The notes under the pieces are model-generated. The model was not told the origin of the DNA and did no database searches. It was given only the letters and a program-made list of their open reading frames with translations. A stretch of DNA of 63,512 bases, filler included, from Reclinomonas americana ATCC 50394 (lineage: Eukaryota), in NCBI GenBank assembly GCA_048213135.1. It is 16 parts of 16 records of this genome, joined end to end, with 100 filler letters (N's around TTAATTAATTAA, not from the genome) between each part and the next. Parts side by side here need not be neighbours in the genome. Positions count along the whole stretch, not along the records: positions 19,991 to 27,381 come from AFZH01023386.1; positions 27,482 to 32,332 come from AFZH01023387.1; 14 more parts are not named here. One strand, written 5' to 3'. A program made the translations under genes and the position numbers. This document shows, piece by piece, positions 317-60,764 of this stretch; position 1 is the stretch's first letter; every line of letters starts with the position of its first letter.

Positions 317-1496
317 ATGACAACAAAGGTGTGAATGTGTGCGCACTTTTGCGTGTTTGGTGTCTGTACATGCATTCGCAGCGTGTGCTTGTGCTCGTGC
401 ATGTGCGGTTGTTGTTCTTTGTGTTTGTGCGTGTGCGTCTCACCGCGAATGATCGACACAGATCATTCAGAGTCTCGCTTCCTCAGTGAGGTCCGTCGCC
501 GTCACTCCCGATTGCCAGCACATTGTTAGCGGGAGCTGGGACTGCACAGTGAGAGTGTGGTCTCTGGCGAGTGGCAAGGAGGTGCGACGGCTGGTGGGAC
601 ACACTGGATGGGTGTTCTCTGTCGCCGTCACCCCTGATGGCCAGCACATCGTGAGTGGGGGTGGAGACAACACCCTACGTGTGTGGTTGCTGGAGAGTGG
701 GATGGAGGTGCGACGGTCGGAGGGACACACTGAATGGGTGTATTGTGTCGCCGTCACCCCAGATGGCCTGCATATCGTGAGTGGAAGTGGAGACTGTACC
801 GTACGTGTGTGGTCGACGGCAAGTGGGGAAGAAGTGCGACGGCTGGAGGGGCACGCCAATGCGGCAATGTCTATAGCCGTCTCGCCTGATGGGCAGCACA
901 TTGTCAGCGGCGGCTATGACAGCACAGTGCGAGTGTGGTCTCTGGCGAGTGGAGAGGAGGTGCGACGGTTAGAAGGAGGCACTGGAGGGGTGTATTGTGT
1001 CGCCGTCACCCCCGATGGTAAGCACGTTGTGAGTGGGGGTGGAGACAACACAGTGCGGGTATGGTTGCTGGCGAGCGGCGAAGAAGTGCGGCGGTTGGAG
1101 GGACACGCTCACTGGGTGATGTCAGTCGCTGTTACTCCAGATGGTCAACACGTCGTGAGTGGCAGTAGGGACAACACGGTGAGAGTGTGGTCACTGGCGA
1201 GCGGCGAGGAAGTGCGACGGTTAGAGGGACACACTGGATGGGTGTCGTGTGTGGCCGTCTCTCCTGACGGTGAACGCATTGTGAGTGCGGGTGGGTACGA
1301 CAGGACGGTGCGAGTGTGGTCCACGCCGCGTGGCCTCGCTCGTCTCGAACTCGACGCCGCGCGCGCGGCCATGGGGACTGTGCAGGAGATGCGGGAGGGG
1401 GCCGTCGAGGAAGAACGAGATTCTCGATGCCTTCCCGAGCTGGTTCTGCGCTGCTTCATCGTCGAGGATGCCGAGGTCGTCTCTCTCTGGTGCTGA
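317..1496 (+). CDS. WD40-repeat protein (7 blades) with short C-terminal helical tail, tandem copy 1; exon1 317-328 (MTTK), exon2 462-1496
   Basis: Seven 42-aa GH...VRVW repeats; ATG ACA ACA AAG|gtgtga...acacag|ATC ATT CAG joins in frame with ORF 486-1496; same micro first exon in the other copies. Confidence 0.9.
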
Positions 1497-3707
1497 GAAG
1501 GTGAGTTGGAGGGAGGGAGAGCGGTGTCTGCTGGTGATTGTGAGTCGTTTTTCGTGTCTTGTGCGGGGGTGCGGGTGGTCATGCGGGATGCAGGTGGGGG
1601 AATAGAGGTCGACGACAGAGGAAGGCAATGAGAAAGTTGTTGATGAAGAATTGTTCTCCCGTGTTTGTTGCCCTGTCATGTCATGAGAATGTGAGTGTGC
1701 GGGCGTGAAGCATGTCTCCCTCTGTGTGCGTGTCTCTTTCTCACCTCCATTTTGTGTGCCAGCTCGATGAATCACCTGGGAGGCTGTTGTGTCTTTTTGT
1801 CTCGTTCTGATGTCTGTGTGCGTGCATCTTTCGTCGCCCATGAATGTGCCTCAGGAGAGCAAGTCGCCGTTGTCTATTCCCTCGCATCCTCTTTTGCGCA
1901 CCACTTTGGCATCACTGCTCTGCTTCCCATTGTGCCTGTGCGTGGCGGACATTTTCATCCCTTCTCTGCAGGATGCATGTCATTCCGGTCATCTCTATCG
2001 ATATCTGTCCCTTGTAGAGTCTCTCTCTTTCTCCACCGTCTCCCTCCTTTGTGCGCTCATTTGCCTCCCCAGTCGTCCACCCCTCCTTGCCGCACACGCT
2101 CGAGGCCGAGCATGCTGGTCTGCTCACCGTGTTCCGACTGCCATCCTGCCAGTCCATCACGGTGAGCATGTCGATGCCGAAGTGTGTGAGATGGCCTGAC
2201 TGCATACTGACTCTGCTCCTTCTCTCCCTTGCAGGATGGTTGTGTAGCGTCCCTCGGCTTGCCTCTTGTCCAACCGTGTGTTGGTATCAGGTGCTGATCG
2301 GTGAGTTTGTCAGTGAGACAGAGAAGATATCTCTCTCCTTCCTCCATTCTTTGCTCACAGCACACCGACATGCAGGCACCTTGGGAGCGCGTGCTTGCCG
2401 TCGGCTGTGACGATTGCAGACGTGCTGTGCATCGCCCGCTACCGACTGTCACCTCACTCAGTTGACTCGACACCCGTTCACGAAGCAGGTGTGTGGACTT
2501 GTTCATCGTGATCTCTCGTTCCGCTTTCCCTCCACTCACATCATTCATGCAGGTCATGCAGCCATGGAGGGCGTGGCGTGATGGCTGTACACCTGCGTGC
2601 CGTGATGTGCGATGTGTGGCCTGGTCGGTTGATCGTTTTCAATCCTGGGTGGCAAGTCGGAGCGGATCGATGATGTGCGCTTCTTGGTTGCCGCCATCTC
2701 TGCCGAGTGATGATGCTGGTTGCCATGGAAGACTGCAGATACGGGCAAGGCAATCTACTCATGGGTGGACACATGCGTGTCGTGTTTCCCGATGGGTGGC
2801 CTGGTCGGTGGATCGTTCTCGATCCCGGTTGGCAAGTCAGAGCGGATCGATGATGTGCGCTTCTTGGTTGCTGCTGTCGCCGCCAAGTAATGATGGTGAT
2901 GGCCATGGGAGACTGCAGACGCGCACGTGGCCTGGTGAGTACGTGTTCTGCATCTGCGTTGAGGAGTAAGTTGGCGAGACTTGGAGATTGACTAACTCAA
3001 TTCTGTGTGACAGGCGTGCTGGCAAGTGACTGGAATGACGTCGATGGCGCGCGGTTCCATGCCTCACAGTGCATGCATGAGACAATGCACCGACCGACTG
3101 TGAGTGTGATTGGAGGCACGAGGCATTGATTGTGATTCGGGTGAGAGGAGGCGAGTCTCACGACGCGGCTGCCTCTTCCATCGCTGTGCTGCTGTACTGG
3201 TCGCTGCTCTCCTGTCTCTTGTGGCTGTTTTTCTTCGTCGCACCATCGTCGTGCCCTCGTCAGCTTCGCTGTGGGCCGATCCAAGGAGGCTTGAGGTTTT
3301 GAAGACTCGGTGCTCCATGGATTCTCGGGTGTGCCGTGGCATCAGCACAGGGCCACAACTGCATATCCAAGCAGCACGACATGCCAGTCCTTGTTGAGAG
3401 ATAATGCAGGTCAGTCGAAAGAGAGTGTCGCTGGTCAGCAGCGCGATGCAGTGGAGCGCCACCTTGTGTCACCACCACCTTGCATGTCTGGTCTGTCGAT
3501 TTCTCATCGACGAGTCCCATGTCAGTCATCGAAAGCCCGCACGCATCAACGAAGCCACATTGCTCTCACACTACCGTCTGTTGTGTGGGGTGCTGGCTGC
3601 AGCCTGGCGAGGGATGGACGGCGTCTCAGTGCAAGGCGGGAGAAAAAAGGCGGGAAACGGTGACAATCGTGAGCGAGCAAATCACACACATAACACACAC
3701 ACGGAGA

Positions 3708-4871
3708 ATGGCAACAAAGGTGTGAATGTATGCGCACTTTTGCGTGGTTGGTGTCTGTGTGTTCATTGGTGTGCTTGTGCATGTGTGTGGTTGTCGTTCT
3801 TTGTGCTTCGAATGTTTCTGCTCGTGAGCCTCATCGCGTTGATCGACACAGATCATTCAGAGTCTCGCAGTGGTGTGGTCCGTCGTCGTCACTCCCGATA
3901 ACAAGCACATTGTCGGTGGGTGCTTGGACAGCTCCGTTCGAGCGTGGTCTTTGGCGAGTGGAGAAGAAGTGCGACGGCTGGGGGGACACGCTGGCGGGGT
4001 GTACACTGTCGCCGTCACTCCTGATGGTCAGCTTATTGTCAGTGGGGGTCGAGACAACACAGTGCGGGTGTGGTCGCTGGCGAGTGGGGAAGAGGTGCTG
4101 CGGCTGGAGGGCCACACCGACGCGGTGACATCTGTCGCCGTCACCCCCGATGGTCAGCACATCATCACCGGCAGCTACGATAGCACAGTGAGAGTGTGGC
4201 TGTTGGCAAGTGGGGAGGAGGTGCGACGGCTGGAGGGACAGACCGGATGGGTAAAGTCTGTCACCGTCACTCCCGACGGTCAGCATGTAGTGAGTGGTAG
4301 CCACGATAACACAGTGCGAGTGTGGTTGATGGCGAGTGGGGAGGAGGTGCGACGGTTGGCGGGACACACTAGATGGGTGCAATCTGTCGCTGTCACCCCT
4401 GATAATCAGCACATTGTGAGTGGCAGTAGGGACAACACGGTGAGGGTGTGGTCACTGGCGAGCGGGGAGGAAGTGCGACGGTTGGAGGGACACACTGCAT
4501 TCGTACAATCGACCGCCGTCTCTCCCGACGGTCAGCATGTCGTGAGTGCGGGTGGGGACAGCACCATTCGGGTGTGGTCTCTGGCGAGTGGCGAGGAAGT
4601 ACGACGGTTGGAGGGACATGAGGGATGGGTGTCGTCTGTGGCCGTCTCTCCCGATGGTCAGCACATTGTGAGCGCCGGTGGCAAGGACAAGACCGTAAGA
4701 GTGTGGTCGTCTCTGCGTGGCCTTGCTCGCCTTGAACTCGACGCTGCGCGCTTGGCCATGCACGCCGTACAGGAGATGCAGGAGGAAGAAGTAGATTCAC
4801 GATGCCTTCCCGAGCTGGTTCTGCGCTGTTTCATCGTCGAGGATGCCGAGGTCGTCCTTTTCTGGTGCTGA
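3708..4871 (+). CDS. WD40-repeat protein, tandem copy 2; exon1 3708-3719 (MATK), exon2 3852-4871
   Basis: Paralog of copy 1 with the same intron position and the same tail (RGLARLELDAAR...CLPELVLRCFIVEDAEV). Confidence 0.9.
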
Positions 4872-6167
4872 GTTGGTGAGTCCGAGGTGGGGACAGATGG
4901 TTGCTAGTGATTGTGAGTTTGTTTCCGTGTCTTGCGAGGGAGAGTGGGTGGTCTTGCGGGATGCAGGTGGGGAAAGAGAGGATGACAGAGGAGGAGAGAG
5001 AGGTCTTTGTTGATCATGAAGAATTGTTCTCCCGTGCTTGCTGCCCTTTCATGTGAATGATAGTCTGCGGTCGTGAAGCATGTCTCCCTCTGTTTACGTG
5101 TCTCTTTCTCACCTCCATTTTGTGTGCAAGCTCGATGAATCACTTGGGAGTCTCTTGCGCTTTTTGTCTTGTTATGAAGTCTGTTGTGCGTGCATCTTAT
5201 TCGTGCATGTGTGTGCCTCAGGAGAGCGAGTCGCCGTTGTCTGTTTCCTCGCGTCTTCTTTGCGCACTTCCTTGGCATCACTGCTCTGCTTCCCATTGGC
5301 GCGTGCGCCGTGGACATTCTCCTTTCGTTCTGAAGAATGCCTGTCTTTCAGCTCTCTTTTTCTTGCCTCCTGCAGAGTCTATCTCTTTCTCCGCCATCTC
5401 CCTGCAATTGTACACTCATCTGATTCCCCAGTAATCCGCCCCTTCTTGCCGCACACGCTCAAGGCCGAACATGCTTCTCTACTCATGTTGCACCGACTGC
5501 CATCCTGCCAGTCCATCATAGTGAGCTTCCCGATGCCGAAGTGTGTGAGGTGGCGTACCTGCATACTGACTCTACTCCTTCTCTCCTTTGCAGGATGGAT
5601 GTGTGAGCGTCCCTTGGCTTGCTTCTTGACAAACGCGTGTTGGTATCAGGTGCTGATCGGTGTGCTTGTCAGCGAGACAGAGCAGATTTCTCTCTCCTTC
5701 CTCTATTCTTTTGCTCACAGCACACCGGCATGCAGAGACCATGGAAAGCATGTCGTGGCGATGACAGGCGTGCTGTGCATTGCCCGTTGTCGACCGTCAC
5801 CTCACTCACTCGGCTCCCCACTCGCATCCCACCAATGCACTCAGCAGTTGTGTGGCCCTGTTCTTCGTGATCTCTCTCTCCTCTTTCCCTCCCACTCACC
5901 CCATTCCTGCAGGCCGTGCATACCATGGAGAGCGTGGTTGGGTGGATGTACACATGTGTGCCGTGATGTGCGATAGTGGCCTGATCGGTGGATCGTTTTC
6001 AATCCCGGCTGGCAAGTCGGAGCGGATCGATGATGTGCGCACCTTGGCTGCCGCCGTCTCTGTCGAGNNNNNNNNNNNNNNNNNNNNNNNNNNNNNNNNN
6101 NNNNNNNNNNNTTAATTAATTAANNNNNNNNNNNNNNNNNNNNNNNNNNNNNNNNNNNNNNNNNNNN

Positions 6168-6728: not shown

Positions 6729-7602
6729 GCTCAATGAATGTACGAAGACCGATTGCTGTCACTGCGCAACTCTGTCTTGTTGACTGCCGCACTTCGTCAT
6801 ACGGGCCAAGGTGCTTCCCGTTGCCCTGCCAAGTGGAGGCAGCCGGAAAGCAGGTGCAGCTCTGTGCCGTGGGATTGCAACAAGAGTATTCCGAGTGCGA
6901 GGTGTGCGTGTGGGTGGTTGAGGTGAGACCAAGGAATGAACAGACACGCGCTGCTCGGCATTGAGCGAGTCCTCGCTCACTGACCCACCCGCACGCCTCG
7001 TGCTTGCCCCCATGTCGCCTTGTCATTCGCCTATCGAAGCAGCGGCCAGTGGCATCATTGACGCGTCTCCCCATCGCACACTGGCGCTTGAACATGGAGA
7101 GCTCACCAAGCATCGCTTCAGATGGCCACCATTCCCTCCGCGCACGCCACGAGGAGGGAGTGCACTTGCCCTGCACACTCGTTTCCTGCACGCATGTGTA
7201 TCCGGTGTGATGCACCCCACTCGCGAGTTGCATTGCCTTGTGGCTCTCTTTCAGAATCGTGTGTTGTTGCTCTCTACCCCACTCACGCGCGTGGATCGGA
7301 GGGAGTTGATGCTCATGTCGCGTCGTGTTGAACAGGCTCGGCATGCATGAACATTCAATCTCACTCACATCGCTGAATGGAGCACCACGCCGAGGACGCG
7401 GAGAGACAGGGGGCACTGAGACACAGACAGCACCGCGAGGTGCACGCACGCGCGCGAGAGAGAAAGAGGATGTTGATGTTCCGTCGGATGAATCAGAGTG
7501 CTTCACACACTACACACACACACACACACACGCACGCACGCACGCACACACACACACGCACACACCCTCTTTCTCTCTCACACACACACATACACACGGG
7601 GA

Positions 7603-8765
7603 ATGACAACAAAGGTGTGGATGTGTGCGCACTTTGCGTGGTTGGTGTCTGTGCATGCATTCGCAGCGTGTGCTTGTGCTCGTGCATGTGCGGTTGTTGT
7701 TTGTGTGCTTGTGCGCCTCACTGCGAGTGCTTGATACAGATCATTCAGACTCTGACTTCTGTGGCGCGGTCCGTCACCTGTACTCCCGATGGCAAGCACA
7801 TTGTCGGTGGGTGTACGGACAAGACCATTCGAGTGTGGTCTCTGGCGAGTGGCAAGGAGGTTCGACAACTGGAGGCATACACTTACATACCAATGGTGTT
7901 CTGTGTCGCCGTCACTCCCGATGGTCAGCACGTTGTGAGTGGGGATGGAGAGAACACCGTGCGTGTGTGGTCTCTGACAAGTGGTGACGAAGAGCGACCG
8001 CTGGAGGGCCACACCAATGCGGTGCTTTCTATCGCATTCACTCCCGATGGACAGCACGTCGTCAGCGGCGGTTTCGACAAGACAGTGCGAGTGTGGTTGC
8101 TGGCGAGTGGAGAGGAAGTGCGACGGCTGGAGGGACACACCGACATGGTGTGGTCAGTCGCCGTCACTCCTGAAGGTCAGCACATTGTCAGTGGCGGTGG
8201 AGACAACACAGTGCGGTTGTGGTCACTGGCGAGCGGGGAGGAGGTGCGACAGTTGGCGGGACACGCTGGATGGGTATACGCTGTCGCCGTCACCCCTGAT
8301 GGACAGCGCATCGTGAGTGGGAGCGGGGACTGCACCGTGCGAGTGTGGTCAGCTACGAGCGGGGAGGAGGTGAGACGGTTGGAGGGACACACTGCATTTG
8401 TACAATCGATCGCCGTCTCTGCCGACGGTCAGCATATTGTGAGTGGGAGTGGAGACAGCACCGTGCGGGTATGGTCTCTGGAGGGTGGAGAGGAAGTGCG
8501 GCGGTTGGAGGGTCATGACGGATGGGTGTCGTCCGTGGCCGTCTCTCCCGATGGTCAGCACATTGTGAGTGCGGGTGGCAAGGACAAGACCGTGCGAATG
8601 TGGTCCACTCCGCGTGGCCTTGCTCGCCTCGAACTCGACGCCGCGCGGTCGGCCATGCAGGCCGTGCAAGAGATGCAGGATGAAGTAGATTCGCGGTGTC
8701 TTCCAGAGCTGGTTCTGCGCTGTTTCATCGTCGAAGATGCCGAGGTCGTCTTTTTTCGGTGCTGA
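7603..8765 (+). CDS. WD40-repeat protein, tandem copy 4; exon1 7603-7614 (MTTK), exon2 7740-8765
   Basis: Same exon structure and seven WD repeats; the N-terminal extension of ORF 7377 is intron/upstream read-through. Confidence 0.9.
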
Positions 8766-17969: not shown

Positions 17970-18343
17970 TCCTCTCGCGCAAGCAAATTGTTGTTTGAGT
18001 GCAATTTCGTTTTTGCCGCCTGCAACTGCAGCGTGCGCCCTTTTCTCTTGCCCATGATGAAGCTTCCGTTGGTACTGTCAGGCCGTTCGCTTTGCTCTGC
18101 CTTTCAAGCAGTATTTATGTCGTTGCTACTGCAGCACGACGGTCATGGCGGCTGCAGAGTCGTGGCGCCCGGCCAACTTGCCTTACGACCTGCTGAGGTC
18201 TCCACGCATGCAGAAGAACAAGGAGAAGAACTACGAAGAAGAGGTGCTTACCGGGAGCAGTACGCTGACTCCTGCGTTGCGAATCAATAAAATCGAAGCA
18301 CCCGAAACCCATCAAGAACGAGAGAGGGCTGCTTTCCGATTCA

Positions 18344-19834
18344 CTACTTCGAATCCCAGAAGAGCTCTTTCTTGGGCACGATGACGGAGAGGGTGTGGGT
18401 GTTGGGGTCCCACTTGGCGCGGCCTTTGGAGTCGTCGACTTCTTGAGGGAAGGGGATGACGAGTTTGCTGAGGGGGAGGAGGAGAGGGGGTAAGAGGGGA
18501 GGGAGACAAAGAAGACAAAGGAGGAAGGAAGCGCAGGATGCAGGAAGATGAAACGGCGAGGAAAGAAGGAAAGGGGAAACTCGAAGATAATGTAAACAGA
18601 CGAGAGTCGGAGCAGCGAATAAAGAGAAGGGGGAGAAGGAAAGCAGCAACAACAACGAGCGACTGCGGCGGATAAGCGGATGCAAACATCAACACAAACA
18701 CCAGTCATGACGACAGTGGTAGAATTGCTTGAACGATACGGACGGGAAAAGAAGGAAAAGGAGACAGCGAAGAGTGCAGTGATGCAGGAAAGCTTAACAG
18801 TGGAAGAGAAGGGGCAACGAAAGTTGCAACAAGTCGTCCACCAACAATATAAGCGACTGCAGTGGATAAGCAGATCCACACATCAACACAAACACCAGTC
18901 ACGATGACAGTTGCAGGAAAATGAGAAGGAGACAGAGGAAACAGAAATAACACCGTGGACTCAAAGAGTAAGAAGGAGAGAATGAGGGAAGGAATCAACA
19001 ACAAAAAATCAAAGGAACGCACCAGAGTAGACAAGAGAAGGACAAGAAAAACCAGAGAGAAAGAGAGATTTCAAGCTGAGAAAATCACAGGAGAGACTGT
19101 GATCGGGGGTACACAAGGAAGAGGACGACAAAAGGCAGCAATCCTCCCTCGCCACCCATCACGCAACTACTTGGCGGTGGCCAGATCCAAGCCCTTGGAG
19201 GTCACATCGAGTGTGATTTCCGTCTGCTGGCGCACCCCGGGCAACTTGATGCGCACCGTGAGCTCCTCGGAGCAGCCAGAACTGGGATCGCGAGTCCAGT
19301 CGGCGCCGAGATACACGTCCTCCGTGCGCACCTTTTGCCGGTGCAGAATGTCGTACTCGGGTCGTTCGCGAGGGTCGTCGTCGGGTTGCTGGACGCGGAG
19401 AGGAGAAGGGTGAGAAGGTGGCAGGAGGGCGATGAAGAGCAGGAGGGAGAAAGGCGGCAAGGAGGAGAGAGAGGAGAGAGGAGAGAGGGAGAGAGGGAGA
19501 GCAAGGAGTGAAGAGGAGTGAAGCACGAGAGGTGATGCAACAGAGGACGAGGGAGTGCAAGTCCGCTTGGAGAGGTGAAGAAGAGAATGAGAGGCAACAG
19601 AAGTCACCAACAAGCAGGCAAGCAGAGACGAACCAACTGAGCAGCTAAAGATCAGAGCAATCGCCACAAACAACGTAGAACATGAGGGACAGAAAGAATG
19701 AAGCGGCATTCCATAAGCGGTGGAGCACGAGAGGTGATACAACAGAGGAAGAAGCGTTGGAATAATCCAGTGATCGAAACAGGTAGTGAGGAGAGGAGAG
19801 GCAGCGAAGAATGAGGAAGAGAAGCAATGAAGAG

Positions 19835-19869
<35 letters not shown>

Positions 19870-20191
19870 GCGACGACGGAGAAGCAGAGGNNNNNNNNNN
19901 NNNNNNNNNNNNNNNNNNNNNNNNNNNNNNNNNNTTAATTAATTAANNNNNNNNNNNNNNNNNNNNNNNNNNNNNNNNNNNNNNNNNNNNGGCGTACATT
20001 GTCGCGGAGGAGGCAGGGGCAGAGGAGGAGTGTGTGGAGGCGGAGTAGTGATCAGGGCGCATGACATCATCGTCGCCGGGCATGTATCCGAGATGACGCG
20101 GCGGTGGTTCTGTGTCCAGTCCACCGTTGCCGTTGCCGCGGTCTCCCTCGGGTGGGAGAAGGAGAGAGGAGAGGAGAGAGAAGTCGGCCAT
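18344..20191 (-). CDS. DNAAF6: Dynein axonemal assembly factor 6 (PIH1D3/Twister), multi-exon, spans gap 19891-19990
   Basis: MADFSLLSSLLLP; DDPRERPEYDILHRQKVRTEDVYLG..RDPSSGCSEELTVRIKLPG..EITLDVT; Y|KLVIPFPQEVDDSKGRAKWD..TLSVIVP (PIH1/CS-domain signature). Confidence 0.9.
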
Positions 20192-22176: not shown

Positions 22177-22935
22177 TTAGTTCTCTCTTGCAATGCCGCC
22201 AGTATCGAATGCGTTCTTCAGCCGGGTCGCGGCCACGTCGCTGCGTGTCTCGACATACAGCACGCGATTCGAGCCCTGCATCACGAGCTGCAACGCGGGA
22301 CAGTGAGCGCAGTGCATTCACCGCGCCGGCGACGGAGGAGAACTCGTGCGTGGCGGTACCTTGAACACAACACCGGTCAGCTTGTAGCTGGCCACCTTCC
22401 CCGAGTAAGCCACCACGTTGAACGCGTCCGACTCGTTGTTGCCATTGTACAGAGCATACGTGAAGACCTGTGTGCACGTGGGTGGGTGGGGTTGATTAGC
22501 TGCTGCAGCGAGAACCCGAACATGCTGCAAAGTGTGCGCAGCAGCGTCACTCTCACCTGCGTCTGATCGTTAAACTTGAGGCCGCAGGTGTGCCAGTCAG
22601 AGACCAGGTTGTCCTCCTTGATCCTCGAGCGCAGCAGGACGGTCAAGGTGCCGGCGTGGACCTGCACGAGAGAAGACTCATCTGCGACCGCGACGAGTGC
22701 AGGTATGTCAGCAATGTTCATGTCGAACACGTACACGACGCTCATGCAGAGAAGAAGAAGATTGTAGGGGAGAAAGAAAGAGGGAGCGGCATGGCCATGC
22801 TCACTCTCTGCAAACGCAACAATCGGCCAGTGCCTCACGCAAGTCACTGCGGAGGGTACGTGCAGAGGCCACTGCGCACGAAGCACACAGAAGAAGACAG
22901 GCAAGGGCGAGCAAGGCGAGTGTGTTTCGGCTCAT
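22177..22935 (-). CDS. Small secreted protein (~150 aa, 4 exons), paralog A, possible PH-like fold
   Basis: Spliced product MSRNTLALLALACLLLCASCAVASARTLRSDLREALAD-YESSLVQVHAGTLTV...DWHTCGLKFNDQTQ-VFTYALY...GVVFK-LVMQGSNRVLYVETRSDVAATRLKNAFDTGGIAREN*; splice sites and frame conserved in paralog B. Confidence 0.8.
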
Positions 22936-23609
22936 GGAATATCGCGTTTTTTGTTTTCACGATATCCGACGCGAGCAGCAATTTAATGCGTCCCTTCCGG
23001 CACATGCAAACGGAAAATGAAGCACGGCTCATCGGTGCGATGAAAGCAGTGTGGTTACCACAGCTCGCAGCACACAAGTGACACCAGCAACGACGACCAC
23101 AGAAGGCGGACAAAACTGGACACAGCAGCCCAGTTGTCTCACACCGTTCATTCGCATGTGTGTGCACAGAGCAGCAGGTCGCGCGAATGACTTGTGAGAG
23201 TAGGAAAGAACGGGCCTTCACACAAGTACCTGCAACAAGCACGCTGCGGTGAGTGGAGGCGATCGCGGCACAACCTGGTGCAAGTGACTCACCAAAGAAC
23301 AAGTGCGGAATCAACGACGGCCACCGGCCTCAGACCACATGAGTCGAGGTCTGCTTGCAGCCAGGAGCGCGCATGTCAGTGGCACCGCAGCATATCCACT
23401 TGAAGGCCATCTGACGCATGCAAAAAGCAATCGTTAGAAAGCAGCGCGGCGTGGCGGAGTACGTACGGCACGCTATGAGCAGCAGACCAGACTTGGAAAG
23501 GTCTTATCGTCAGTGCTTCTCGTCTCCAACTTCTCCAGCTGCTCGCAGAATAACAAACGAGCATGAACAAGAGCGATTGAGGTGTTTCAAGATTTCACAA
23601 CGTGCAAAC

Positions 23610-26600
23610 CGTCTGCGAAAACAAGTAAGAGAGTGATGCAACGAGGCACATACAGAAGAAGTCTGCACACACCTTGTTGAACTGGTCACCCAACGAAGCA
23701 TGTGCGTGCGCGTCAAACAAATAGTTGCTTGTCTAACGCATTCCGCAGAGACAAAACATACCGGCTGGGCACACAGATAGAGCATTCTTCAGTGGACCCA
23801 GAGAACACAAACGATTACTGATACTCATGCGCGCACGATAGATCTCATTTACACATACACACACACACACACACACATGCACACTCAACTTCCTGCAATG
23901 ATTCATGCGACCATCGTCAATTGTCACCACGCATACCAACACGCTCCCAGTCAGTGAGCACAGATGCATCAAAACAGGCACACTTACAGCCGTCCAAAAT
24001 ACTTCTCTCTCTCTCTCTAAACACACAACAGTGCTCACCAACTGCACAGTCAATGGTGCAGAATCCATCGCCGATGCCGCCGTGCAAGAAAAAACACACC
24101 AACAAGCACAGTCAGTCAAGCACAGCAAGACAAATGCTCACGCTCTCACTCAAACGCGTGCACTCACCGACTGCATCCCAACGTCATGCCGTCCAGCGCA
24201 GATACACACGAATCATGCACAGTCAGTTGTCGACAACAAGGACAATGGCACAATCTCTCTCTCTCTTGGAACCACACGCACTTGCACATGCTGCACGACC
24301 ACACCCACCGTTGCGCACATGAAAACACACGGCGCACGCAGTCAGTCAATGACACACAAACATCTACGCACTCAAGAATACTTAACTTCCGGACGCAGCG
24401 GCTAATGACAGCCGTCACAATCGTGCACGATCAGCCACACTCAACGCAAACACACAGATGCAAACACACACACACACACGCGCGCGCGCGCACACGCACA
24501 CACACACACCTCCTGCATTTTGCCAGTTGCCAAACACGCAGGCGTAAATACACAAACACAGACCGCTCAGAAGACGGCAAGCTGCTCACCGTCTTCATTG
24601 CCAAACATCAATTAACATCGTCGAAGATAGATTCACTGTCAACAAACACGCCCATGTACAACACAGACGCACGCGTACGCAACTCGCTGCGTTTTGATGC
24701 ACCCACGACCATCCACCATTTGTGCACGGTCAGTTAACGATACAGACCACTTTGCAAACACACTCTTTCGCTCTAACACTCATGCACACGCAAGCGCTTC
24801 AAATAAATGCATACTCAGCTCGCTACAGCACATACACGAACACCGGGCACAGTCAGTTGTCCACAATACACCTGGCACACGAAAGATCGCACTCACATAC
24901 TGCAGCAATCCATGCCATACGCACACAGTCAGTTGATCTTGACAAAACACACATTCACAAGCATAGCGTACTCAACTCCCTGCATCGTCACACGTACGGA
25001 AAAATGGGACAGTAAGCAGATGTAGACTGCAACTTGCGTGGCAGGCACAAGCATACTCACATCCTGCACGAGCACAGTGAGCAGACCACCCAGAGGAAGC
25101 AGACAACATGCATGCGCAGACTCTGTCTCTCTCTCTCTACATGCGCGCGCACACAAGCACGTGCACACGCAACGTTCTGCATTGTTGTACGCATCGCAAA
25201 TCATCAAGCGCACCAAGAATGTATCAGCCAAAAGCCTCCATGCAAAAACATATGCGCACATACGCACCAGCTGCGTCACACACAACAAGAAGATCAGGCA
25301 TCTGACGCACACACACGTTGCAATCCCAAATGCATACTCAACTCCCTGCAGAATCACGCAACCATCCCCAATACGCCGCACGCAGTTAGCAGCGACATTA
25401 ATTCAGATGCTGTGCACCATCTTCCCGACGCACCTCCTGTTGTCAAGAATCCACCCGTGCAGAGACATGAGCTCGACGCACTCAATTGCAACGTATGAAC
25501 CAAGCAAGCAAGCGACACTCTCACCGACTGCATTCGCAAGCGTCATCACGAACGTCGACATACATTCACAAGCGCATACAGTCAGCGACGACACGCGATC
25601 ACCCATGAACAAACGGGCGCAAGAACTCACCCACTGCGTGCATCACCATCCCGGTCACACGGCACACACAGCCAGTCATTCACACCACACTCGCCCAACA
25701 CATGAACACGCTTACTCACATGCTGCATCGCCGACGCAATTAGCAGAGTCAGATGATGAAAGCAAGAACGAACAGAGAAACAGGAATAGATTTGTACTCA
25801 ACTTCCTGTACACAGCCACGGCATGTCAAGCGCGCACTTAGTCGCCAGACAATAGTGCACTGCAACAAGACGCGGGCGAACTCACCGCCTTCGTCGTAAT
25901 CGTAATTATCGGATTGAAGAAACATACAAATCACCACATCGACAGCAATCTCTCGCGCCACGCACGCAATACACTCACCGACTGTAAAGATGTAGTGACG
26001 CCCATACAAGGTCAGCTTTTTGTCAAAGAAACAAAACAGGACGCACAGAGCACTGCTCCATGCTTGTTTCTCACCGACTAACGCATGCAGTTGTCGCCAA
26101 ATCATTCCACCAGTCAGTCAGCTGACATCCATTCGCGATCGCAGCAAGCAAGCACACACTCACATACTGCGCAACATTACCAGACAATCACGAATTCAGT
26201 CTGACTGCAAGAACAGATCAACGATTGCAAAGCAAACGCAACTGCCTGAGTTGACGGATCAATGATCGTCATTGGCATTGAAAAAGAGCACAGTCAGTCG
26301 AGCGCACGACAGAAAACAACAAGCACCACTACTCTGACAAACGCGCACACTCAACTTGCTGCAAGTTCACCGTCATTTCCACCATCATGCAAGCAAGTGA
26401 GTCGACGAGCTTCATCACAAACAACACAACATACTGATTCTCACCGCCTGCATCAATGAACACAGACACAGTCAGTCGACGAATCAAGATCAACACCTCT
26501 CACTCGCAAACAATCGAATACTAACCCACTGTCACATTGTGTATTCATCAACATTGGCGCCGTTACACAAACACACACTGTCAGGGTATTGCAACACCAA

Positions 26601-27319
26601 ACGCCTTCGCTTCAAAGTTTCATACACTCACCAACTACGTCGTGTCGTAAACGTCAATGTTTTTCCACACACAAAGCGTCAGCCACACCACCAGCAAGGA
26701 CGACGCAGATGCAAGCAACAACCACTCAACTCCCTACATCAGGAAAGTCAGTCGAATACACAAACACAATTTCTCCTTCCCCCCAACACACACTCGAACA
26801 CTCACCGACTACGTGCATTCATCACCATTGGGGCCATCATGCAGACAATTGTGGCATGTTAGATCTCAGTCGCGATCTACGACACACCACACACAAACTC
26901 ACCTCCTGCGAATAGCCATGCAGTACCATTGTCGAGCACACGTCAGAAAAGTCGAGCACATTACAACGAAACGTAATGAACTCAACTTTCTGAAATTGGA
27001 CGAAGACACACGCCACATTCAGTCAGTTCTCTGCAAAGAGTAGCAAAAGCAAGCATACTAACCAGCTATAGAGTTGTTGCCAAACAGAATCAACATATCC
27101 TCAGTCAGAATGTAACAACCGTCGCCCTCAGCGCGAACACAAGCATGCACACGCATGCACGCACACACGCACACACACATATATACTCGCCCACTGCGTG
27201 TCATGCATCGCTCGTGAGTGTCACCGTTACAATTGCAGGCGTACAGTCAACAAACGCACTCAACTCCCTGCAAGTAGTAGATCATGCATACATCGCCATT
27301 ATCGCCAAGACCACACACG

Positions 27320-27375
<56 letters not shown>

Positions 27376-27996
27376 ACACACNNNNNNNNNNNNNNNNNNN
27401 NNNNNNNNNNNNNNNNNNNNNNNNNTTAATTAATTAANNNNNNNNNNNNNNNNNNNNNNNNNNNNNNNNNNNNNNNNNNNNCATCACACCGACGGTCAGA
27501 CTGATATGATCATGCACCTTTGAAAGGACTGCATGCAAACACCGCTCACATCCTGCAAGTTCGCCGATTGGCGGCATGCATAGTCAGCAAGTGACCCATC
27601 CTCAGCGCTCAAACAAGCAGAACCTCTCACCCACTGTCGTGTTGGTGGCGAACACAATCGTGACGGTAACGTAAGCTCCGCAAGAAAGCGCAATTCCCGA
27701 ACGAAGCACATTGGCACGCAACTCCCTGACGCACGCAAAGTTGGTCAATAACAACAACAACACGCACAATCAGTGACACGACGCAAGCTGAAGGTACTCA
27801 CATCCTAATTGTCATGCAATCGCGCAAGCACGGACGCAAAGTCAGCCGCCATCACTCGCTAACAAGATCAAATAACACGCAGACGCAACTCGCTGCGAAA
27901 TCATGCGCACAAACAAACACCACAAGCGCAGTCAGTTGATGGCAAACAACGCACACAACCGAGACACACGGGCGTGCACGAATTATCTCTCTCCAG

Positions 27997-28034
<38 letters not shown>

Positions 28035-29264
28035 AACTTCCTGCATCACGCGTGCATCGTCATTTGGTGGTTCACACAAAACACAAAAAAGAAGCACAGT
28101 TAGTTAATTAACAATTCGTTTACACACATACACACACTCACCAGCTGTAGTGTCGCCAGTGCCGTACCACACACGACGTATGCAAAAGCAACATCAGTCG
28201 ATCACATCAACGACAGTCGCACTCTCTGCACACACACACAAACTTAACTCCCTGCAATACACAAGGCGAAGCGCACAGTCAGTCAAAGGTGCGCCGAAGA
28301 CGCAATCTCTATCCATATACACTCAACTCCCTGGGTTGGTGTTGCATCAAACGGAGACAACCGCAATCACGGTCAATCGAAACGCTCTCACATCCGTGTG
28401 AACAATTTCACAACAATAACTCACAGACTGCGACATTGAGCGCAAAGAGGTCACACAAACACACGCCACACGCAGTCAGTGACCCCATTCGAGAGATATC
28501 CACATGCACCAGCACACGAATGTACGCACAAACTGCAACCGCAATTGAGATCGCAGTGAGTAAATGGTACGATCTCAAACCAATCACAAGCGCAGCCTCA
28601 CCGTCTAATGTCGCATACGTCACCATCGTGGCCGACAAACAACATACGCAGTCAGTTGACGCTCTCACCACACATGCATACATGCACACTCAACTTCCTG
28701 CAATCATGCATCCGCCGTCGGTGAACACACACACAAACACACACACATGTTTAGTAAGCGACACTCGCACGCTCGAATGATGAGCACACGTTCGTCATAC
28801 TCAACAAGCTGCACATTTGCACGTCCATTGCCATCGCCGCCGTCACAACACATTTGAACACCATTCGCAGTGATGAGGAGGATTACGCACACGCACTCCG
28901 CTTATCCACTCGCAAGAAGGGTTCCAACTCACCACCTGCAGCATCACGAACATGTCAGCACAAGTGCACAAGGAGAGAGATCTAGAGAGAGAGAAAGATG
29001 AATATACACACACACACACACAAACATGCAAACATGCAAACATGCAAACATGCAAACATGCAAACATACCCACTGCACGTGTTTCGCAATCATGAACACA
29101 AAAATCAACGTGCACAACCACCGTCAGTCACTCATCCCACAAACACACACTTCACACGAACTCGCATACTCACATACTGCACGACCACACATTCACCGTC
29201 ACCGCAGCGTCAGAGTGAGGAACACATCAGCAACCTCAAAACCCAAGCGCGTAACACGAACCAG
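23610..29264 (-). other. Array of ~55 putative 3-nt (single-codon) microexons separated by ~70-150-nt introns
   Basis: Recurring minus-strand pattern YAG|NNN|GTGAGT/GTTGAGT/GTTGCGT/GTGCGT with frequent upstream CTGAC branch motifs (cagtcag on +); e.g. 29174-29176 TAT, 28695-28697 GAA, 27631-27633 TGG, 26806-26808 TCG, 25061-25063 GAT, 24168-24170 TCG, 23890-23892 GAA. Confidence 0.85.
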
Positions 29265-29380
29265 CTGAAAGCGCGAGCTGAAAGTGAGAAACCTCACGAG
29301 GAAAGAATGCAAGAATCGCGCGCGGCGTAACCTCTGTATGATGCGTGCACGACTGGCCCGGAACAGCTGGCTGTCCGCAC

Positions 29381-29840
29381 CTCTTGCACAACTTTGTCCG
29401 CCATCTTCGTCAACAATGCAAGACAACAGAACGTGCCATCAGATGCCACACGAACCGGGAGCTGAGCGCTTGCTTCCTGCTGCCGACGCTCTTCCTCTGC
29501 GGCAGCTGCAGCCTCTTCGCGCAAGCGCAAGGCGCCCATCTCCTGTTCGAGTGTGGCGGCGGCCTCCATTTCTCCGCGACACACTGGACACCCGTGTGCA
29601 CGATGCACGGGAACACACGCGAGACAGCTGAGACAGGAGGTGAGGAGACGCTGGCGAGTGGCGAGATGCGCACAATGGAGTGCGTGAGTTTTGAAACACA
29701 CACACACACACGCACATTGTGTGACCGTGTCCACACGGCGCCACCATCGGGCGGTGCTCATCGGCGTCAAACGCCTCGCGGCAGACAAGACAACGAGCGC
29801 CCTCGCCCAAGGCGCCAGCGTGAGGCACAAAGTCTTCCAT
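29381..29840 (-). CDS. RING-finger (C3HC4-type) plus coiled-coil exons; 5' part of the microexon gene (putative E3 ubiquitin ligase)
   Basis: Spliced CLVCREAFDADEHRPMVAPCGHGHT-ICLACVPVHRAHGCPVCR, then EQEMGALRLREEAAAAAEEERRQQE; exon ends ...KVVQE|gtgcgg in phase 0 at 29381. Confidence 0.8.
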
Positions 29841-30507
29841 CAGATCGTTCACAAACAGACGAGTGTGCGTTTGGCCTGCGCGAGTGAGTCATCTTCCTCT
29901 GTCTTACCTCTCCACACACTCTCGCTCTCTCTCGCCGTTTCCGCGGCTCTCTGGTGTATCAACTAGTACACCTGCTGCATGCACCTTCGTCGTGGAGAAC
30001 AACACAAAGAAAGCAACGCGCACACACAAACCACGTGCACTCATTGCACGCAATATCAATGGCCGCTGTGCAAGTGCCTCATGGCAAGTGGCAGTTGTGT
30101 GTGGTGTGTACCGTGCGCCGAGCTAGCATTCTCCTCTGCCGCTCTTCTCTTCGTCCCTCTCTCTCTCTCTCAATCATTTTCTTCTCACTCGCATCGGAAC
30201 TTTCTGGCTCTGCACCGTTTCTCTCTTCTCGTGCACAAACTCCGTCTCTCTATCTCTGCAGTTTATCCTCTGCTCCCCTGCACTCTCCTTGTTTCACTCT
30301 CGTCATTGTTATGTTCCAGTGGCTGCAGCTGCATGCGCATGCCGCTTGCCAGTGGCCAGAAACTGGAATATTTCAGATCGCACCAAGTGTTGGCATGCCT
30401 GTTCCCGCTGCTCTTGAAGTAGCATGCATCCCAAGAGTTCGCTTGTTTTGTTCATTGATCCTGCCCACCCAGCCGCAGCGCAGCGGGAGAATATTCTTCG
30501 CTCATAA

Positions 30508-31262
30508 TCAGTTCTCTTTCGCAATGCCCGCCGTATCGAATGCAGACTTCAGCCGGCCTGCGGCCGCGTCGCTGCGCGACTCGACGAACAGCACGCGATT
30601 CGAACCTTGCATCACCAGCTGCAACACAGGCCACACTGAGCGCATGCGCAGACAAGAAGTAAACACGACTTGAGCTGCTGTTGCGAACCTTGAACACCAC
30701 GCCGGTCTGCTTGTAGCTGGCCACCTTACCCGAGTACCTCACCACGTTAAACGCATCCGACTCGCTCACGTTGTTGTCGGTCAAGAGAGAGTACGTGAAG
30801 AACTGCGCGCGGGCAGCGTGAAAAACAAGCCCTCTCGAACATGCTGCTTGCTGCAAAGTGTGCGCAGCATTCATGATCACGCACCTGCGACTGATCGTCG
30901 AACTTGATGCTGCAGGTGAGCCAGTCGGAGACCAGGTTGTCCTCCTTGATTCTCGACCGCTGCACCGTCAAGGTGCCGGCGTGGACCTGCACGAGGGAGG
31001 ACTCATCTGCAACAGCGACAAGTGCAGGTATGTCAGCAATGATGGTCATGTCGAACACGTACACGACGCACATGCAGAGAAGAAGATTGTAGGGAGAGAG
31101 AAAGAGGGAGAGCCATGGCCATGCTCACTCTCTGCAAACGCAACAATCGGCCAGTGCCTCTCGCAAGTCACTGCGGAGGGTGCGTGCAGAGGCCACTGCG
31201 CACGAGGCACACAAAAGAATACAGGCAACGGCGAGCAAGACGACGAGTGTGTTTCGGCTCAT
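30508..31262 (-). CDS. Small secreted protein, paralog B of 22177-22935
   Basis: Same signal peptide, three introns at identical positions, ends ...KSAFDTAGIAKEN*. Confidence 0.8.
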
Positions 31263-32959
31263 GGAATATCGCGTTTTGTGCTTTTCGATGATATCCAACG
31301 CGAGCCTCAATGCATGCCTGCGTTACAGCGGACAAAAGGAAACGCGTTTTGCTGCGTGCGGTTCATCGGTGTGTACACAGCAGTGTGGTCATCGGCACTC
31401 TCAGCACGCAAAAGGGCGCTGCAATCGACGTGGGAGAGAGGAGAGCGAACACCTGCATGTCACCTGACGATCGTGTCGTCTCCTTATCGGTTCGCTTCTG
31501 TTGGCTTCCGCTCTTCCGAGAGCAACCCATCTGATCGGTACTCAACTGCGGTGATCACTCCGGTCTAACTGAAGTCGCAGACGAAGAGATATCGATGGTT
31601 TGGGCCCCGGTTCGGTCCGGTTCGGTTTTCAAACGCAGGCCGGAAGTGGCCGCACGGAAAACTCTGGCGGCATCGCACTGCAGCTCCCTCTGCACAGCAT
31701 GCCACTGGTGTCATCGGCAACAGCACGCACAGTCGACAAAAGACTGTGTCCTGCGTTGCGAGGAAAATTCTGACAAACCGATGTCGACATGTCCTGCATT
31801 CCTCTCTCACACTCACACACACGAGAGCCAAGGAGCCGAGGCTTCCCGTCACCTCCGCTGACACTTTCCTGTATATCGACAAGCTCGCTTGCTGCACTCG
31901 TATCCAGATCAGGAAAGAACACGACCGAAACAGCGCATCCACACACACAAACAAACCACGCACTCAATATCAGTGACCTCCTGTGCGTCATGGCAAGTGG
32001 CAGTGGTGTGCACCGTGAGTTGCGTCGAGCTGGTCCTCCTTCTGATGTCATTCTTTGTGTGTGTGATTTCCTCATGCTGCGATGATTGCTTCTCAAACTC
32101 TTCTGACTCCGCCTGGCGCTTCTCTGTTTATTCTCTCTCCGTTTCTCACAGTCTTACGTGCACTCTATCCCTCACATCTCTCTCTATGCACTATCTCCTC
32201 TCTCACTCTTTCTCTCACTCTCACCTTCCTCTCTCTCTCTCTCTGCCTTCCTCTCTTCTCTCACACTCGAGATATCTCTCAGCAGTTTCTCCTCTGCCTC
32301 ACTCTTGCTCTCCCCTTCACTCTCCCTCTCTCNNNNNNNNNNNNNNNNNNNNNNNNNNNNNNNNNNNNNNNNNNNNTTAATTAATTAANNNNNNNNNNNN
32401 NNNNNNNNNNNNNNNNNNNNNNNNNNNNNNNNTTCCGAAGGTGGTACAAGAATACAATGGCCGCTACCAGCAGTGGAGTACGAGCATAAAGAGCGACGAA
32501 AGCGATTGGCAGTGCAGCGGCAGAGGTCATGTGAGTGAGGAAGTGGTTGCACAAGAGTACAGTGATCCCCACCAGCAGCGAGGAGATGGACATCGACGAG
32601 CAGGGGGAGTAGCGCAAGCGGAGAATAGAATGGAGAGCCACATGTAGTTGGCCAAGAGAGGTGATACGGGAGTGAGTGAGGGAAAGTACATGAGGACAGT
32701 GGTTACTAACAGCATGACCAGAGAAGTGAGGACGAGGCACAAGAGGGCAGTGACCGCTCTGAGCAGGACAGAGCCACAAGTAGTTTTCCGAGAGAAGTTC
32801 GGAAGAGGCAGCGCAAGAGGTCAGTGATCCCCAACAGCAACATAGGGAGGAAAGAAACACAAGTAGTGGAACGAGAGAGAGCTGTGGCACATGAGGACAG
32901 TGATCTCCACTAGCCGCGAGGAGAGCAGGAGCATGGAGGTCACTCACCCTACGCGTCAG

Positions 32960-35485
32960 GCGGAGAGCGCACTGGGAGACGCGCTGCGTGCATTCGTCGC
33001 GGCACAAGCGCGAGTTGACGAGGCGGAGGGTCGACGAATGGCCAGTCAAGTGGACGCACTGCTGGCAAGTCAGGAGCTTGAGCCAGCACGTCGGCTCCTG
33101 CGACAATTGATGCAAGCATCGAACGGCATGATGGTACTCGACAATGTGGGTTCGGCGGAACAAGTGAGGAGTGTTGTGTGCAGCGCCGAGGGTGAGTGAG
33201 CGCCGTCGCCAATCGACAATACGGAGATGCTTATATCCTCTTTTTCCGCAACGCCAGGCGGATTTGTGGCCCCGATCGTGGTGCTCACCAGCCGACACGC
33301 GCGTGTGGCCGACGAGATTCGCGACATCGTGGCGAATGAAGCAGTGGTGGAATGCGTGCAAGTCGAGAGCGTCGAAGATGAGGACGTGGTGGAACTGGTG
33401 GAGGAGCGACTGCGCAGCGTGGTCGGAGAGGGAGTGCGTCGACGCATTGTGGAGGCGCTGGAGAGCGGAGGACAGCAACACAAGAGCGCGCTACGAGTGA
33501 GTGCGTGTGTGGGGTGAGCGAGTGCGCATGATCTGGCTGTTACTGTACGTGCGCTCTCTCTCTTTCTTTTGCCTCACTTCTGCGCATCTTGCAGTTGGCT
33601 TCTCACGCAGTCGCCAGCGCAGTTGGAGGGCGCGCGACTGGAACAAGTCCTCCACGGCATTGGCGGTGATGCGCTGTCGCAGCTGCTGGAACGCAACGTA
33701 ATGTCGCAGACACTGCCGGCGCGCCGCTTGTTACTACTGATCACGGCGTGCAAGGAACTCGGCTTGCCGGTGACGCCGGCACTCGCACGAGTGATGCTGG
33801 GCTTGCTTCATGCACTCCCCGATGTCGGCGACGTGGCGGAGGTGGGCGTGCCGGCCGACGACGAGGAACTGGCGACGAGGCTGATGGAGCTGGGCGAGTG
33901 TGTGCGACGACTTCGTCTGCATGAGTTGGCGCAGGAGAGGCGACGCCGTGCACCCGACTTGCTGGGCGAGCGACTGCAAGTTGACGAGATGAGTGAGGAG
34001 GAGGAGCAGCGAGTGCGCGCACGACGGGTGGAGTTGCTGGGCGAGACGGAGGAGGATGTGCAGGAATTGTTGGAGGCTCTGTGTCGGTGCAATTTGGTGA
34101 CGTTGGGCGTCAGCGGCAGCACGGACAGCGTGGCTCGTGTGCTGGCGGGGGAGCAAGTGCGTGAGAGTAACGTTGTCATGGAATATCGCGTGCACGACGA
34201 GATTGCGGCGTGGATTGTGCGACAAAGTGAAGCGGCCGTCTCACGAACGCAGCGACTTCTCGTGCGTCTGCTGTGCTGCACGCTGGTGGGCATCGACACC
34301 GCCTTGGACAATGACCGCACCGTGCTGGTATCTCGTGACATTGCCGGGGTGATGCACGTTGTGTGGCAGCGTCTCTGCAAGGACGACAAGCTGTGGTCTG
34401 CGATCGGTGTCCGCGGCCCCCTACTGCAGTGCTCGGCGGTGGAGTGGATCAGCGAGCAGTGCGTCACTGGTCACCAGCCGACCCGCGGATTCGACATGAC
34501 TCTCGTTCCGACGCTGTTGGATCGTGTGACCGAGTATGGTGAGCAGCAGAGCAGGCACACATGTCGACCGCTCAGTGTGACAGTGGCGCGGTGTCGTGCG
34601 TGGCTCTTCGATGTGCTGTACCAGTGGCAGGACCGTGCGGCTGCGTGGCAGCAGGCGTGCCGTCTGTGCGAGGAGTGGGGAGTAGCAGCTGGCGCAATGT
34701 CCGCGTTGGAAGGCATGGCCGCGCAGCGTAACATCATGTGGCTCGCCAACGGCACCGAAAACCTGCCGCTGCTGGTGCACTGCTACCACCAACAGTGCGT
34801 CACGCTCGGCGAGAGTCACCCCGACTCGCTAGTAACACTGGTCTACGTCGCCGGCTATCACCAGCGCAAGCGCGAGAACCGCGAGGCCGAGGCTCTCAAT
34901 CGGCGATGCTGGGAGTTGCGGCGGCGAGTGCTCGGCGAAGAGCATCCCGACACACTGATCTCCATGAACAATCTGGCCTCCAGCATTCGCGACCCGGCAC
35001 GTCTCCACGAGGTTCTCGCACTCAAGCGTGAGTGCACGCGGTTGATGGTGGCGGCGCTCGGCGCGCGCCATCCGTACGCACTCATGGCGCAGAGTAATCT
35101 CGGGGCCACGGTGCTGCGCAAGGACACGCCAGAGTCGACGGCGCAGGCAACTGATCTGTGTCGCGAGTGCCTCGAGGCACGGCGCGAGGTGCTCGGCAGC
35201 CGGCACGAAGACACCCTCGCGACGCTGGCCAACTACGGGTTCCTGCTGATGCTGCAGCGGCAGTGGGCGGCGGCGCAGCCGCTGCTGGTGGAGTGTGTGG
35301 CGGGTCGTCGGGCGGTGCTCGGCGATCAGCATCCGGAGACGCTGAAGGCCGAGAAGCTGCTGGGTGATTGTCGGTGGTATGAGGCGGAACAGGAGCTGCA
35401 GCAGCAGCAGCAGCAGCAGCAGGCGGCAGCGGTGGAGGAGGTGGGGGCGATGGCGGAGGAGGGTGGTGGTGATGAGCCAAGGTGA
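32960..35485 (+). CDS. NB-ARC-like NTPase plus TPR protein (NLR-like), 5' end probably in gap
   Basis: MMVLDNVGSAEQV (Walker B-like), IVVLTSRH (sensor-1-like), YRVHDEI (MHD-like), kinesin-light-chain-type TPRs (RRVLGEEHPDTLISMNNLA, EVLGSRHEDTLATLANYG); Walker A not seen. Confidence 0.75.
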
Positions 35486-60309: not shown

Positions 60310-60764
60310 TTGAGTTAATGTATAATGATGAAGTGCTATGGAGGAAGGGAGGAAAGGGAGGGGGAGGGGAGGGAGGAAATGGAGAGGGAGGGGGAGAGAG
60401 AAGAGGGAGAGGCAAGAGAGGGAGGAGGGGAAAGAGAAAGGAAGGAGGAAATGGAGAGGGAGGATGGGAAAGGGAGAGGCAAGAGAGGGAGGGTGAGAGT
60501 GGCGCGCGTGGCAAAGAGGCGTGGTAAGCAAGGTACGTCATCGCGACGTTGAAGTAGAGTAACATCGGGCACCCATTGGCACCGGAGACGACATGATTTC
60601 AAAAGACGGCAGCGTCTGCGACTTTACAAGAGACAACCAAGGGTCTCGAAAGAGGGCACACTATTGCCATCTCAGGCACACTTGGCATCCGTGGCCGAAA
60701 CACAACCGAGGCGCTGCCTGTCACGGGGAACGGTGAGTGACCGAGGAGGTAAGGGCGGAGGAAG

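Follow-up and report, generated by a model that had tools for sequence, protein, structure and literature searches.

Why does a long run of three-base exons draw on so few triplets, and why does the last base of each triplet foretell the donor that follows it? We examined this question in DNA of Reclinomonas americana ATCC 50394 (assembly GCA_048213135.1), in a window of 63,512 nt, which is the whole stretch that was analysed. On the minus strand of this window, from 29264 down to 23762, at least 54 curated units of the form AG|NNN|GT follow one another (the donor begins with GC in two of them). We consider it fairly probable that this array reflects a splice-site grammar imposed on 3-nt exons between short spliceosomal introns, and not a codon vocabulary.

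The layout of the array is very regular. Its introns are 69–219 nt long with a median of 90 nt (the 52 without a contig linker), and the interval that spans the linker measures 282 nt. All GTGAGT strings on the minus strand, and all but one of the GTTGAGT strings, lie exactly 3 nt after an AG. The combination of YAG, any three bases and a strong donor was found 45 times in the array and 11 times across the remaining window on both strands. The array is present in the same orientation on both sides of the linker at 27382–27481. Because the linker cuts it, units are missing there, and 54 is a minimum.

We counted the triplets of all 54 exons. A few dominate (GGA 7, TCG 5, TGG 5, GAA 4, CTG 4; GAT, TAT, CGA and GAG 3 each) and stop triplets are absent (0/54). 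Both features had been claimed in an earlier note on this DNA, and our recount gave identical numbers. There are 22 distinct triplets where a position-independent model, fitted on these same 54 triplets, predicts 29.4 (P = 0.0012), so the set is narrower than that model allows. The sevenfold use of GGA alone is not exceptional under it (P = 0.10).

The last base of the triplet is tightly coupled to the donor. A 7-base donor of the GTTGAGT type follows 17 of 17 A-ending triplets, and a 6-base donor follows 35 of the 37 others (Fisher’s exact test, p = 3.6 × 10−12). Within the array, this test bears out the coupling that the earlier note had described. The CTT exception given there holds (28808–28806), and a second exception with a long donor, AAC (25176–25174), was not named in it. 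The 19 long donors comprise GTTGAGT (12), GTTGCGT (5), GTTAAGT (1) and GCTGAGT (1). T at +3 is also found in three 6-base donors (GTTAGT twice, GTTCGT once). A screen for ordinary introns outside the array, which are motif-defined, unverified and few, returned 37 rows with 7 distinct long-type donors, one of them with A at −1. At two ordinary intron positions taken from a paralogue alignment (4 donors, unverified) the donors are CAG|GT and AAG|GT, which would be the AG-ending context that the array avoids.

The long donors may be explained by the way in which they pair with U1 small nuclear RNA (snRNA). Roca and Krainer reportedly found that atypical 5′ splice sites are read by U1 in a register shifted by one base. 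In humans such shifted-register sites are a small minority. Tan et al. (2016; PMC4856993) credit the shifted register to Roca and Krainer (2009) and give a validated “Shifted +1” oligonucleotide, which has A at −1, GU, one unpaired base and then AAGUAU. We took the U1 5′ end from that paper and computed the pairing of each donor with it. The 19 long donors have a mean of 8.2 bp (run 5.5) when shifted by one base, compared with 4.3 bp (run 2.0) in the canonical register. For the 35 ordinary donors the order is reversed, with a mean of 8.5 bp (run 6.4) in the canonical register and 4.8 bp when shifted. In 17 of the 19 long donors (those after CTT and AAC being left aside), A at −1 and G at +1 replace the usual A at −2 and G at −1. 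The suggestion that the long donor makes up for the missing G at −1 is thus well supported, by pairing arithmetic and not by experiment.

These donors resemble human shifted-register sites in having A at −1, G at +1, U at +2, one unpaired base and then RAGU, and in forming more pairs when shifted. Unlike in humans, 19 of the 54 donors in one locus are of the shifted type here, and each A-ending triplet carries a long donor. The A at −1 apparently stems from a ban on AG within exons of only 3 nt. The coupling would exemplify a mechanism that is already known, U1 pairing in a shifted register. A parse of the long donors as 8-nt exons followed by GTRYGC was rejected: the second of the two GTs is the weaker one, and the additional conserved bases are consistent with U1 pairing that extends to +7 and +8.

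The choice of triplets also agrees with an avoidance of rival splice sites. NAG triplets number 3, all of them GAG, where 8.3 are expected (P = 0.025); YAG triplets number 0 where 4.5 are expected (P = 0.009); and TAA and TGA together number 0 where 3.3 are expected (P = 0.034). Secondary AGs, which lie inside GAG or are formed by an A-ending triplet and the G of the donor, are preceded by a purine in 19 of 20 cases, whereas the true acceptor AG is preceded by a pyrimidine in 52 of 54 (Fisher’s exact test, p = 1.9 × 10−14). Because of this purine-before-AG rule, the A-ending triplets are GGA, GAA, CGA, AAA and CAA, with GCA only once. The hexamers that T-initial triplets really form are weaker ones, such as GTCGGT, GTGGGT and GTATGT. 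Among the stops, TAG is a strong acceptor and TGA and TAA make a rival donor, so each stop triplet would harm splicing. Since every stop triplet creates a rival acceptor or donor, the count of 0/54 does not demonstrate coding.

A mechanism can be proposed from these results. Each triplet would do double duty, as the first three bases past an acceptor and as the last three before a donor. Owing to this double role, its sequence would be shaped mainly by one requirement, that a stretch of about 10 nt offer a single usable AG and a single usable GU. By a first rule, the last base would be G, less often T, ahead of a GTGAGT-type donor with which U1 pairs canonically. By a second rule, a last base A would call for a GTTGAGT-like donor; the exonic A and the intronic G would mimic AG, and U1 would sit one base out of register while cleavage remained at the GU. 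By a third rule, triplets that create a rival site would be excluded. A YAG triplet would be a second acceptor, and an AG that cannot be avoided would have a purine before it and so be a poor acceptor, which would favour GGA, GAA and CGA. Together with the last G of the acceptor and the donor GT, a T-initial triplet would make up a hexamer, which for TGA or TAA would be a perfect GTGAGT or GTAAGT. Combined, the three rules would yield the skewed triplet set. Splicing would proceed stepwise from 5′ to 3′, as in recursive splicing with three bases left per step.

The introns themselves carry signs of function. We counted AG upstream of the acceptors in successive 10-nt bins, starting at 3–12 nt, and obtained 0/530, 1/530, 3/530, 10/530 and 16/530. 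The frequency climbs to 25/529 at 53–62 nt; composition predicts 0.054. A zone of about 40 nt upstream of every acceptor is therefore depleted of AG. Such an exclusion zone is expected between a branch point and the 3′ splice site in use, and it argues for working introns. The branch motif CTGAC is found in 28 of the 53 introns (7.3 expected), and the acceptors are CAG (44), TAG (8) and AAG (2). The intron interiors have a mean local-alignment score of 17.0 (n = 53), compared with 15.8 for dinucleotide shuffles, and the score falls to 16.0 when microsatellites are masked; the best-aligning pairs are GT repeats and other microsatellites. This agrees with the earlier description of diverged interiors between kept junctions and branch motifs. 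Signals for donor, branch and acceptor kept on a randomised background, together with the AG depletion, argue for purifying selection on splicing, which had been proposed as well.

Some further strings recur in the introns. Within the 45 nt that precede the acceptor, 8 of 53 introns contain GCATGA (1.7 expected, z = 5.2), CGGCGA-like and GATGG-like strings recur between branch and acceptor, and TGCATG-like strings are frequent just past the donors. They may belong to an intronic enhancer or be left over from a founder unit.

Several points weigh against the splice-site grammar. The splicing of the array introns, the U1 register and the order of removal are read from the sequence and put forward here as probable features. 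No U1 snRNA gene was found in the window by an Rfam search, and a conserved U1 5′ end was assumed for this organism. The expected triplet counts derive from the very triplets with which they are compared. Long donors never follow G-ending triplets (0/25). This would not be expected from pairing alone, since U1 should likewise bind GTTGAGT when a G stands before it, so the clean partition could partly reflect descent from two unit types. The long donors also share some extra, weak similarity at +8 to +11. Finally, all 54 exons are exactly 3 nt long (with one candidate of 15 nt) although the introns range from 69 to 219 nt. The grammar does not require this. The constant length points to frame preservation, and coding may contribute.

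If coding does contribute, at least 54 single-codon exons could be spliced and together encode the tail of a RING-like protein, with subsets skippable in frame, a donor mix that sets inclusion, and a huge W/G-rich family of variants as the outcome. We regard this as rather unlikely. The ORF (open reading frame) upstream of the array matches the Pfam family zf-RING_UBOX with E = 0.0087 and 16.5 bits, below the cut-off of 25.2. No homologue of it was found at E ≤ 0.01 among 421 candidates of 99–317 aa. When the triplets are joined in phase 0, 5 of the 54 residues are Trp, and most of them adjoin Gly, Ser, Asp or Glu. This pattern recalls the GW/WG “Argonaute hook” regions, and it may simply reflect TGG as a good splice context.

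The coupling could also be explained by descent. The array would then have grown by tandem duplication, or by introner-like spread, of founders of the types NNG|GTGAGT and GRA|GTTGAGT, and the exon–donor link and the repeated GGA, GAA, TCG and TGG would be inherited hitch-hikers without functional compensation. Fifty-four or more tandem units, all with the same 3-nt spacing, are difficult to build without duplication, which remains the only simple route to such a layout. The narrow triplet set, the weak conservation of the long donors at +8 to +11 and their absence after G-ending triplets fit this explanation as well, and the decayed units seen at 24445 and 23987 would mean turnover. However, the interiors are at shuffle level. 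In an all-vs-all alignment of the introns, permutation tests showed that neither units with the same triplet (p = 0.41) nor units of the same donor class (p = 0.34) cluster. Neighbouring introns are no more alike than distant ones. The order of the triplets holds no higher-order repeat (P = 0.31), and adjacent identical triplets number 3, compared with 2.45 expected, which gives no signature of target-site duplication. Terminal inverted repeats are absent (complementarity of the intron ends 4.19/14, control 4.15/14). Tandem Repeats Finder reported periods of 2, 7, 8, 10 and 12 only and none near 100, and the array does not consist of head-to-tail copies alignable at ≥70%, as a tandem satellite or minisatellite would. 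If divergence were so complete, the retained link between exon and donor would itself need selection. The origin by duplication or introner-like insertion that the earlier note had inferred has thus left no detectable trace, and we judge descent to be a distinctly unlikely cause of the coupling.

Coding as the main driver is less likely still. The triplets would then be codons, read in phase 0, for a protein tail that has at least 59 residues and in which G, W, E, L and S abound; stops would be absent, and exon length fixed at 3, because the frame must be kept. A simple model predicts 5.9 stops where none is found (P = 0.002), and the joined triplets contain 2 stops in frame 1 and 1 in frame 2. 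The exons are all 3 nt, the lone longer candidate has 15 nt, and a phase-0 join to the upstream ORF is possible at a donor past GAG (29383–29381). However, the competition between splice sites also predicts the lack of each stop triplet. The choice of triplets is opposed to the codon usage of five real ORFs in the window: GGA makes up 7 of 7 Gly triplets in the array and 21% of the Gly codons of these ORFs, GAT 3 of 3 against 40%, and CAT 2 of 2 against 17%. GAT, TAT and CAT exclude their commoner C-ending synonyms, and C-ending triplets number 1 of 54 whereas the GC content at third codon positions is about 0.65 in the five ORFs. Intron lengths are evenly spread modulo 3 (16, 17 and 20). Introns with in-frame stops number 36 of 53 in frame 0, compared with 47 and 41 in the other frames, so there is no enrichment. 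The upstream ORF is without a homologue. If the intron at 29265–29380 is not spliced, that ORF stops at a TGA (29296–29294), which falls 30 nt before the first donor, and the array would lie in a 3′ untranslated region. “Codon vocabulary” is therefore a misnomer. From the overall interpretation in the earlier note, the compensation by the donor and the selection on splice signals are supported, while the duplication or introner origin and the codon vocabulary are not.

It is equally improbable that the region is not a spliced array at all, but a decaying relic, a host of non-coding RNAs of the small nucleolar RNA (snoRNA) or mirtron type, or a GT-rich structural repeat with incidental motifs. 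In favour of this, no homologue of a host gene was found, the strand skew is strong (G+T is 65% of the transcribed strand), and TGATG and CTGA strings recur that recall the C/D boxes of snoRNAs. Against this, the AG-depleted zone is aligned on every acceptor, and donor, branch and acceptor motifs are kept between randomised interiors. A snoRNA host or mirtron cluster was rejected, since no Rfam family reaches its gathering score in the window (three weak matches, E 0.21–0.44, at E ≤ 1 in 23000–30000), intron folding is at shuffle level (mean z-score −0.30, below −2 in 2 of 53), and the box-like strings stand in the wrong order within the intron.

We compared the array, read as 3-nt exons under a splice-site grammar, with known systems. 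The micro-exon genes (MEGs) of Schistosoma consist of runs of symmetric exons of 6–36 nt with ordinary flanking exons and encode secreted proteins. The array shares with them symmetric exons with lengths in multiples of 3 (3 nt in 54 of 54, and 15 nt in the candidate), so that any subset could be skipped without a frameshift. It differs in that its exons have 3 nt and not 6–36, in that at least 54 stand in a row, and in its RING-like upstream ORF. Recursive splicing in Drosophila and vertebrates uses ratchet points, AG|GT with a zero-length exon, which subdivide very long introns. In the array, too, a donor follows the acceptor almost at once, and the exonic portion of each new donor would come from the 5′ exon as it grows, so that introns would be removed in order from 5′ to 3′. 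Unlike at ratchet points, the spacing is 3 nt in 54 of 54 units and not 0, 3 nt would be left at each step, and the introns measure only about 90 nt. The array is thus near to MEGs and to recursive splicing and outside the definitions of both. Introner families are defined by sequence similarity, often with terminal repeats and target duplications. The array resembles them in its many close introns with strong consensus signals, and it differs from them in that no shared interior sequence (16.0–17.0 compared with 15.8), terminal repeats or target duplications were detected.

That a 3-nt exon can be spliced is indicated by the 3-nt microexon of human RPS24 (PMC12207440) and the 3-base exon of MAP4K5 (PMC8632122); those exons are isolated and not arrayed. 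No description of arrays of 3-nt exons was found in full-text literature searches. A metagenome scan for a long-donor unit with a canonical unit after it returned 21 loci, none of them comparable: L019 is a 24-bp satellite, L003 is of low complexity, and the others hold 2–3 chance units. In L019, positions 1366–1603 (minus strand) form a 23/24-bp satellite whose unit is CAG GTA followed by GTGAGTGG or GTTGAGTG. The alternation of two donor-like variants that differ by one base in length is probably a chance resemblance.

The coordinates of the features are collected in Table 1.

Table 1. Features of the proposed three-base exon array and of its immediate flanks, in window positions.
Feature	Position	Strand	Details	Basis
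Three-base exon array	23762..29264	minus	54 exons and 53 short introns	curated from sequence
Upstream part of the array (right of the linker)	27482..29264	minus	18 triplets, in order CTG TAT TGG GTG CTT GAA ACG TTT TCT GGA GGA CTG GAA CGA GAT GGA TGG GAT	
Contig linker	27382..27481	none	N44, TTAATTAATTAA, N44	
Downstream part of the array (left of the linker)	23762..27381	minus	36 triplets, the last being CCG at 23764–23762	
Shifted-register example	28688..28697	minus	exon GAA (28697–28695), then donor GTTGAGT	
Canonical example	26800..26808	minus	exon TCG (26808–26806), then donor GTGAGT	
Exon starts before long donors (first 10 of 19)	28808, 28697, 28330, 28251, 28040, 27892, 27725, 27267, 26989, 26733	minus		
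Exon starts before long donors (last 9 of 19)	26358, 26245, 25805, 25345, 25176, 24979, 24822, 24686, 23892	minus		
Candidate 15-base exon	24387..24401	minus	TTAG before, GTTAAGT after; in frame, without a stop; inside the 219-nt interval	inferred
Putative 116-nt intron	29265..29380	minus	GAG|GTGCGG...TTTCAG; its removal would link the upstream ORF, in phase 0, with CTG, the first triplet	inferred from sequence
Upstream ORFs, in two frames	29381..29888	minus	weak RING-like half-motif; the host gene may begin here with its 5′ portion	
First bases of the exon that follows the last array intron	23595..23612	minus	in phase 0, five codons and then TGA	

Beside the candidate 15-base exon stands a GTTGAGT at 24445 (minus strand) without an acceptor, which resembles a decayed unit, and a stray GTAAGT at 23987 (minus strand) lies 14 nt past an AG. 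Such signs of decay within the three longest intervals (24445, 24401–24387 and 23987) suggest a turnover of units. The transcribed strand of the array introns holds many GT, GA and GC microsatellites, and the putative introns just upstream (29265–29380, and one within the RING-like ORF) are C-rich instead. Positions 24000–30000 have a strand asymmetry with a GC skew of about −0.29 and an AT skew of about +0.30; strong GC and AT skews (up to +0.38 and +0.39) were also observed at 18000–20000 and 60000–62000.

The surroundings of the array hold other features. Linkers with the same N44-TTAATTAATTAA-N44 structure occur at 15 sites, every 2–5 kb (for example 6068–6167, 27382–27481 and 32333–32432). 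The window is therefore a chain of short contigs, and sequences on either side of a linker need not be adjacent in the genome. The RING-like ORF and the array are bracketed by a direct repeat, some 0.8 kb long (22179–22957 and 30510–31284), whose copies lie 8.33 kb apart and share blocks of 82–95% identity. The repeat resembles a pair of paralogues of a small gene that contains introns and has no Pfam match. From its conserved and its divergent blocks, ordinary introns can be traced, which have CAG|GT and AAG|GT donors and TTGCAG acceptors. Long intron-free ORFs are located at 453–1496, 3843–4871, 7377–8765 and 33518–35485; they comprise very regular WD40 repeats and a TPR_10/TPR_12 ORF, resembling those of NLR-like gene families. 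Database matches of the TPR ORF were all generic, with at most 40% identity over about 30% of the query. An Atlas look-up of a 1058-aa ORF gave scores all below 0.8.

In very short exons, the absence of stops and a skewed set of apparent codons can stem from the rules of splicing alone, and they are no proof of coding. If the triplets were nevertheless translated, the locus would be an extreme micro-exon gene, a single gene able to give rise to a vast family of peptide variants. If the grammar proposed here is true, the link between A at −1 and GTTGAGT would offer the densest case of shifted-register recognition in nature, and the shifted register would solve the problem posed by the ban on an exonic AG. 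Spliced as read, 54 diverged introns in a context of 3-nt exons would form a natural mutagenesis series for the U1 register, the choice of acceptor and the avoidance of cryptic sites.

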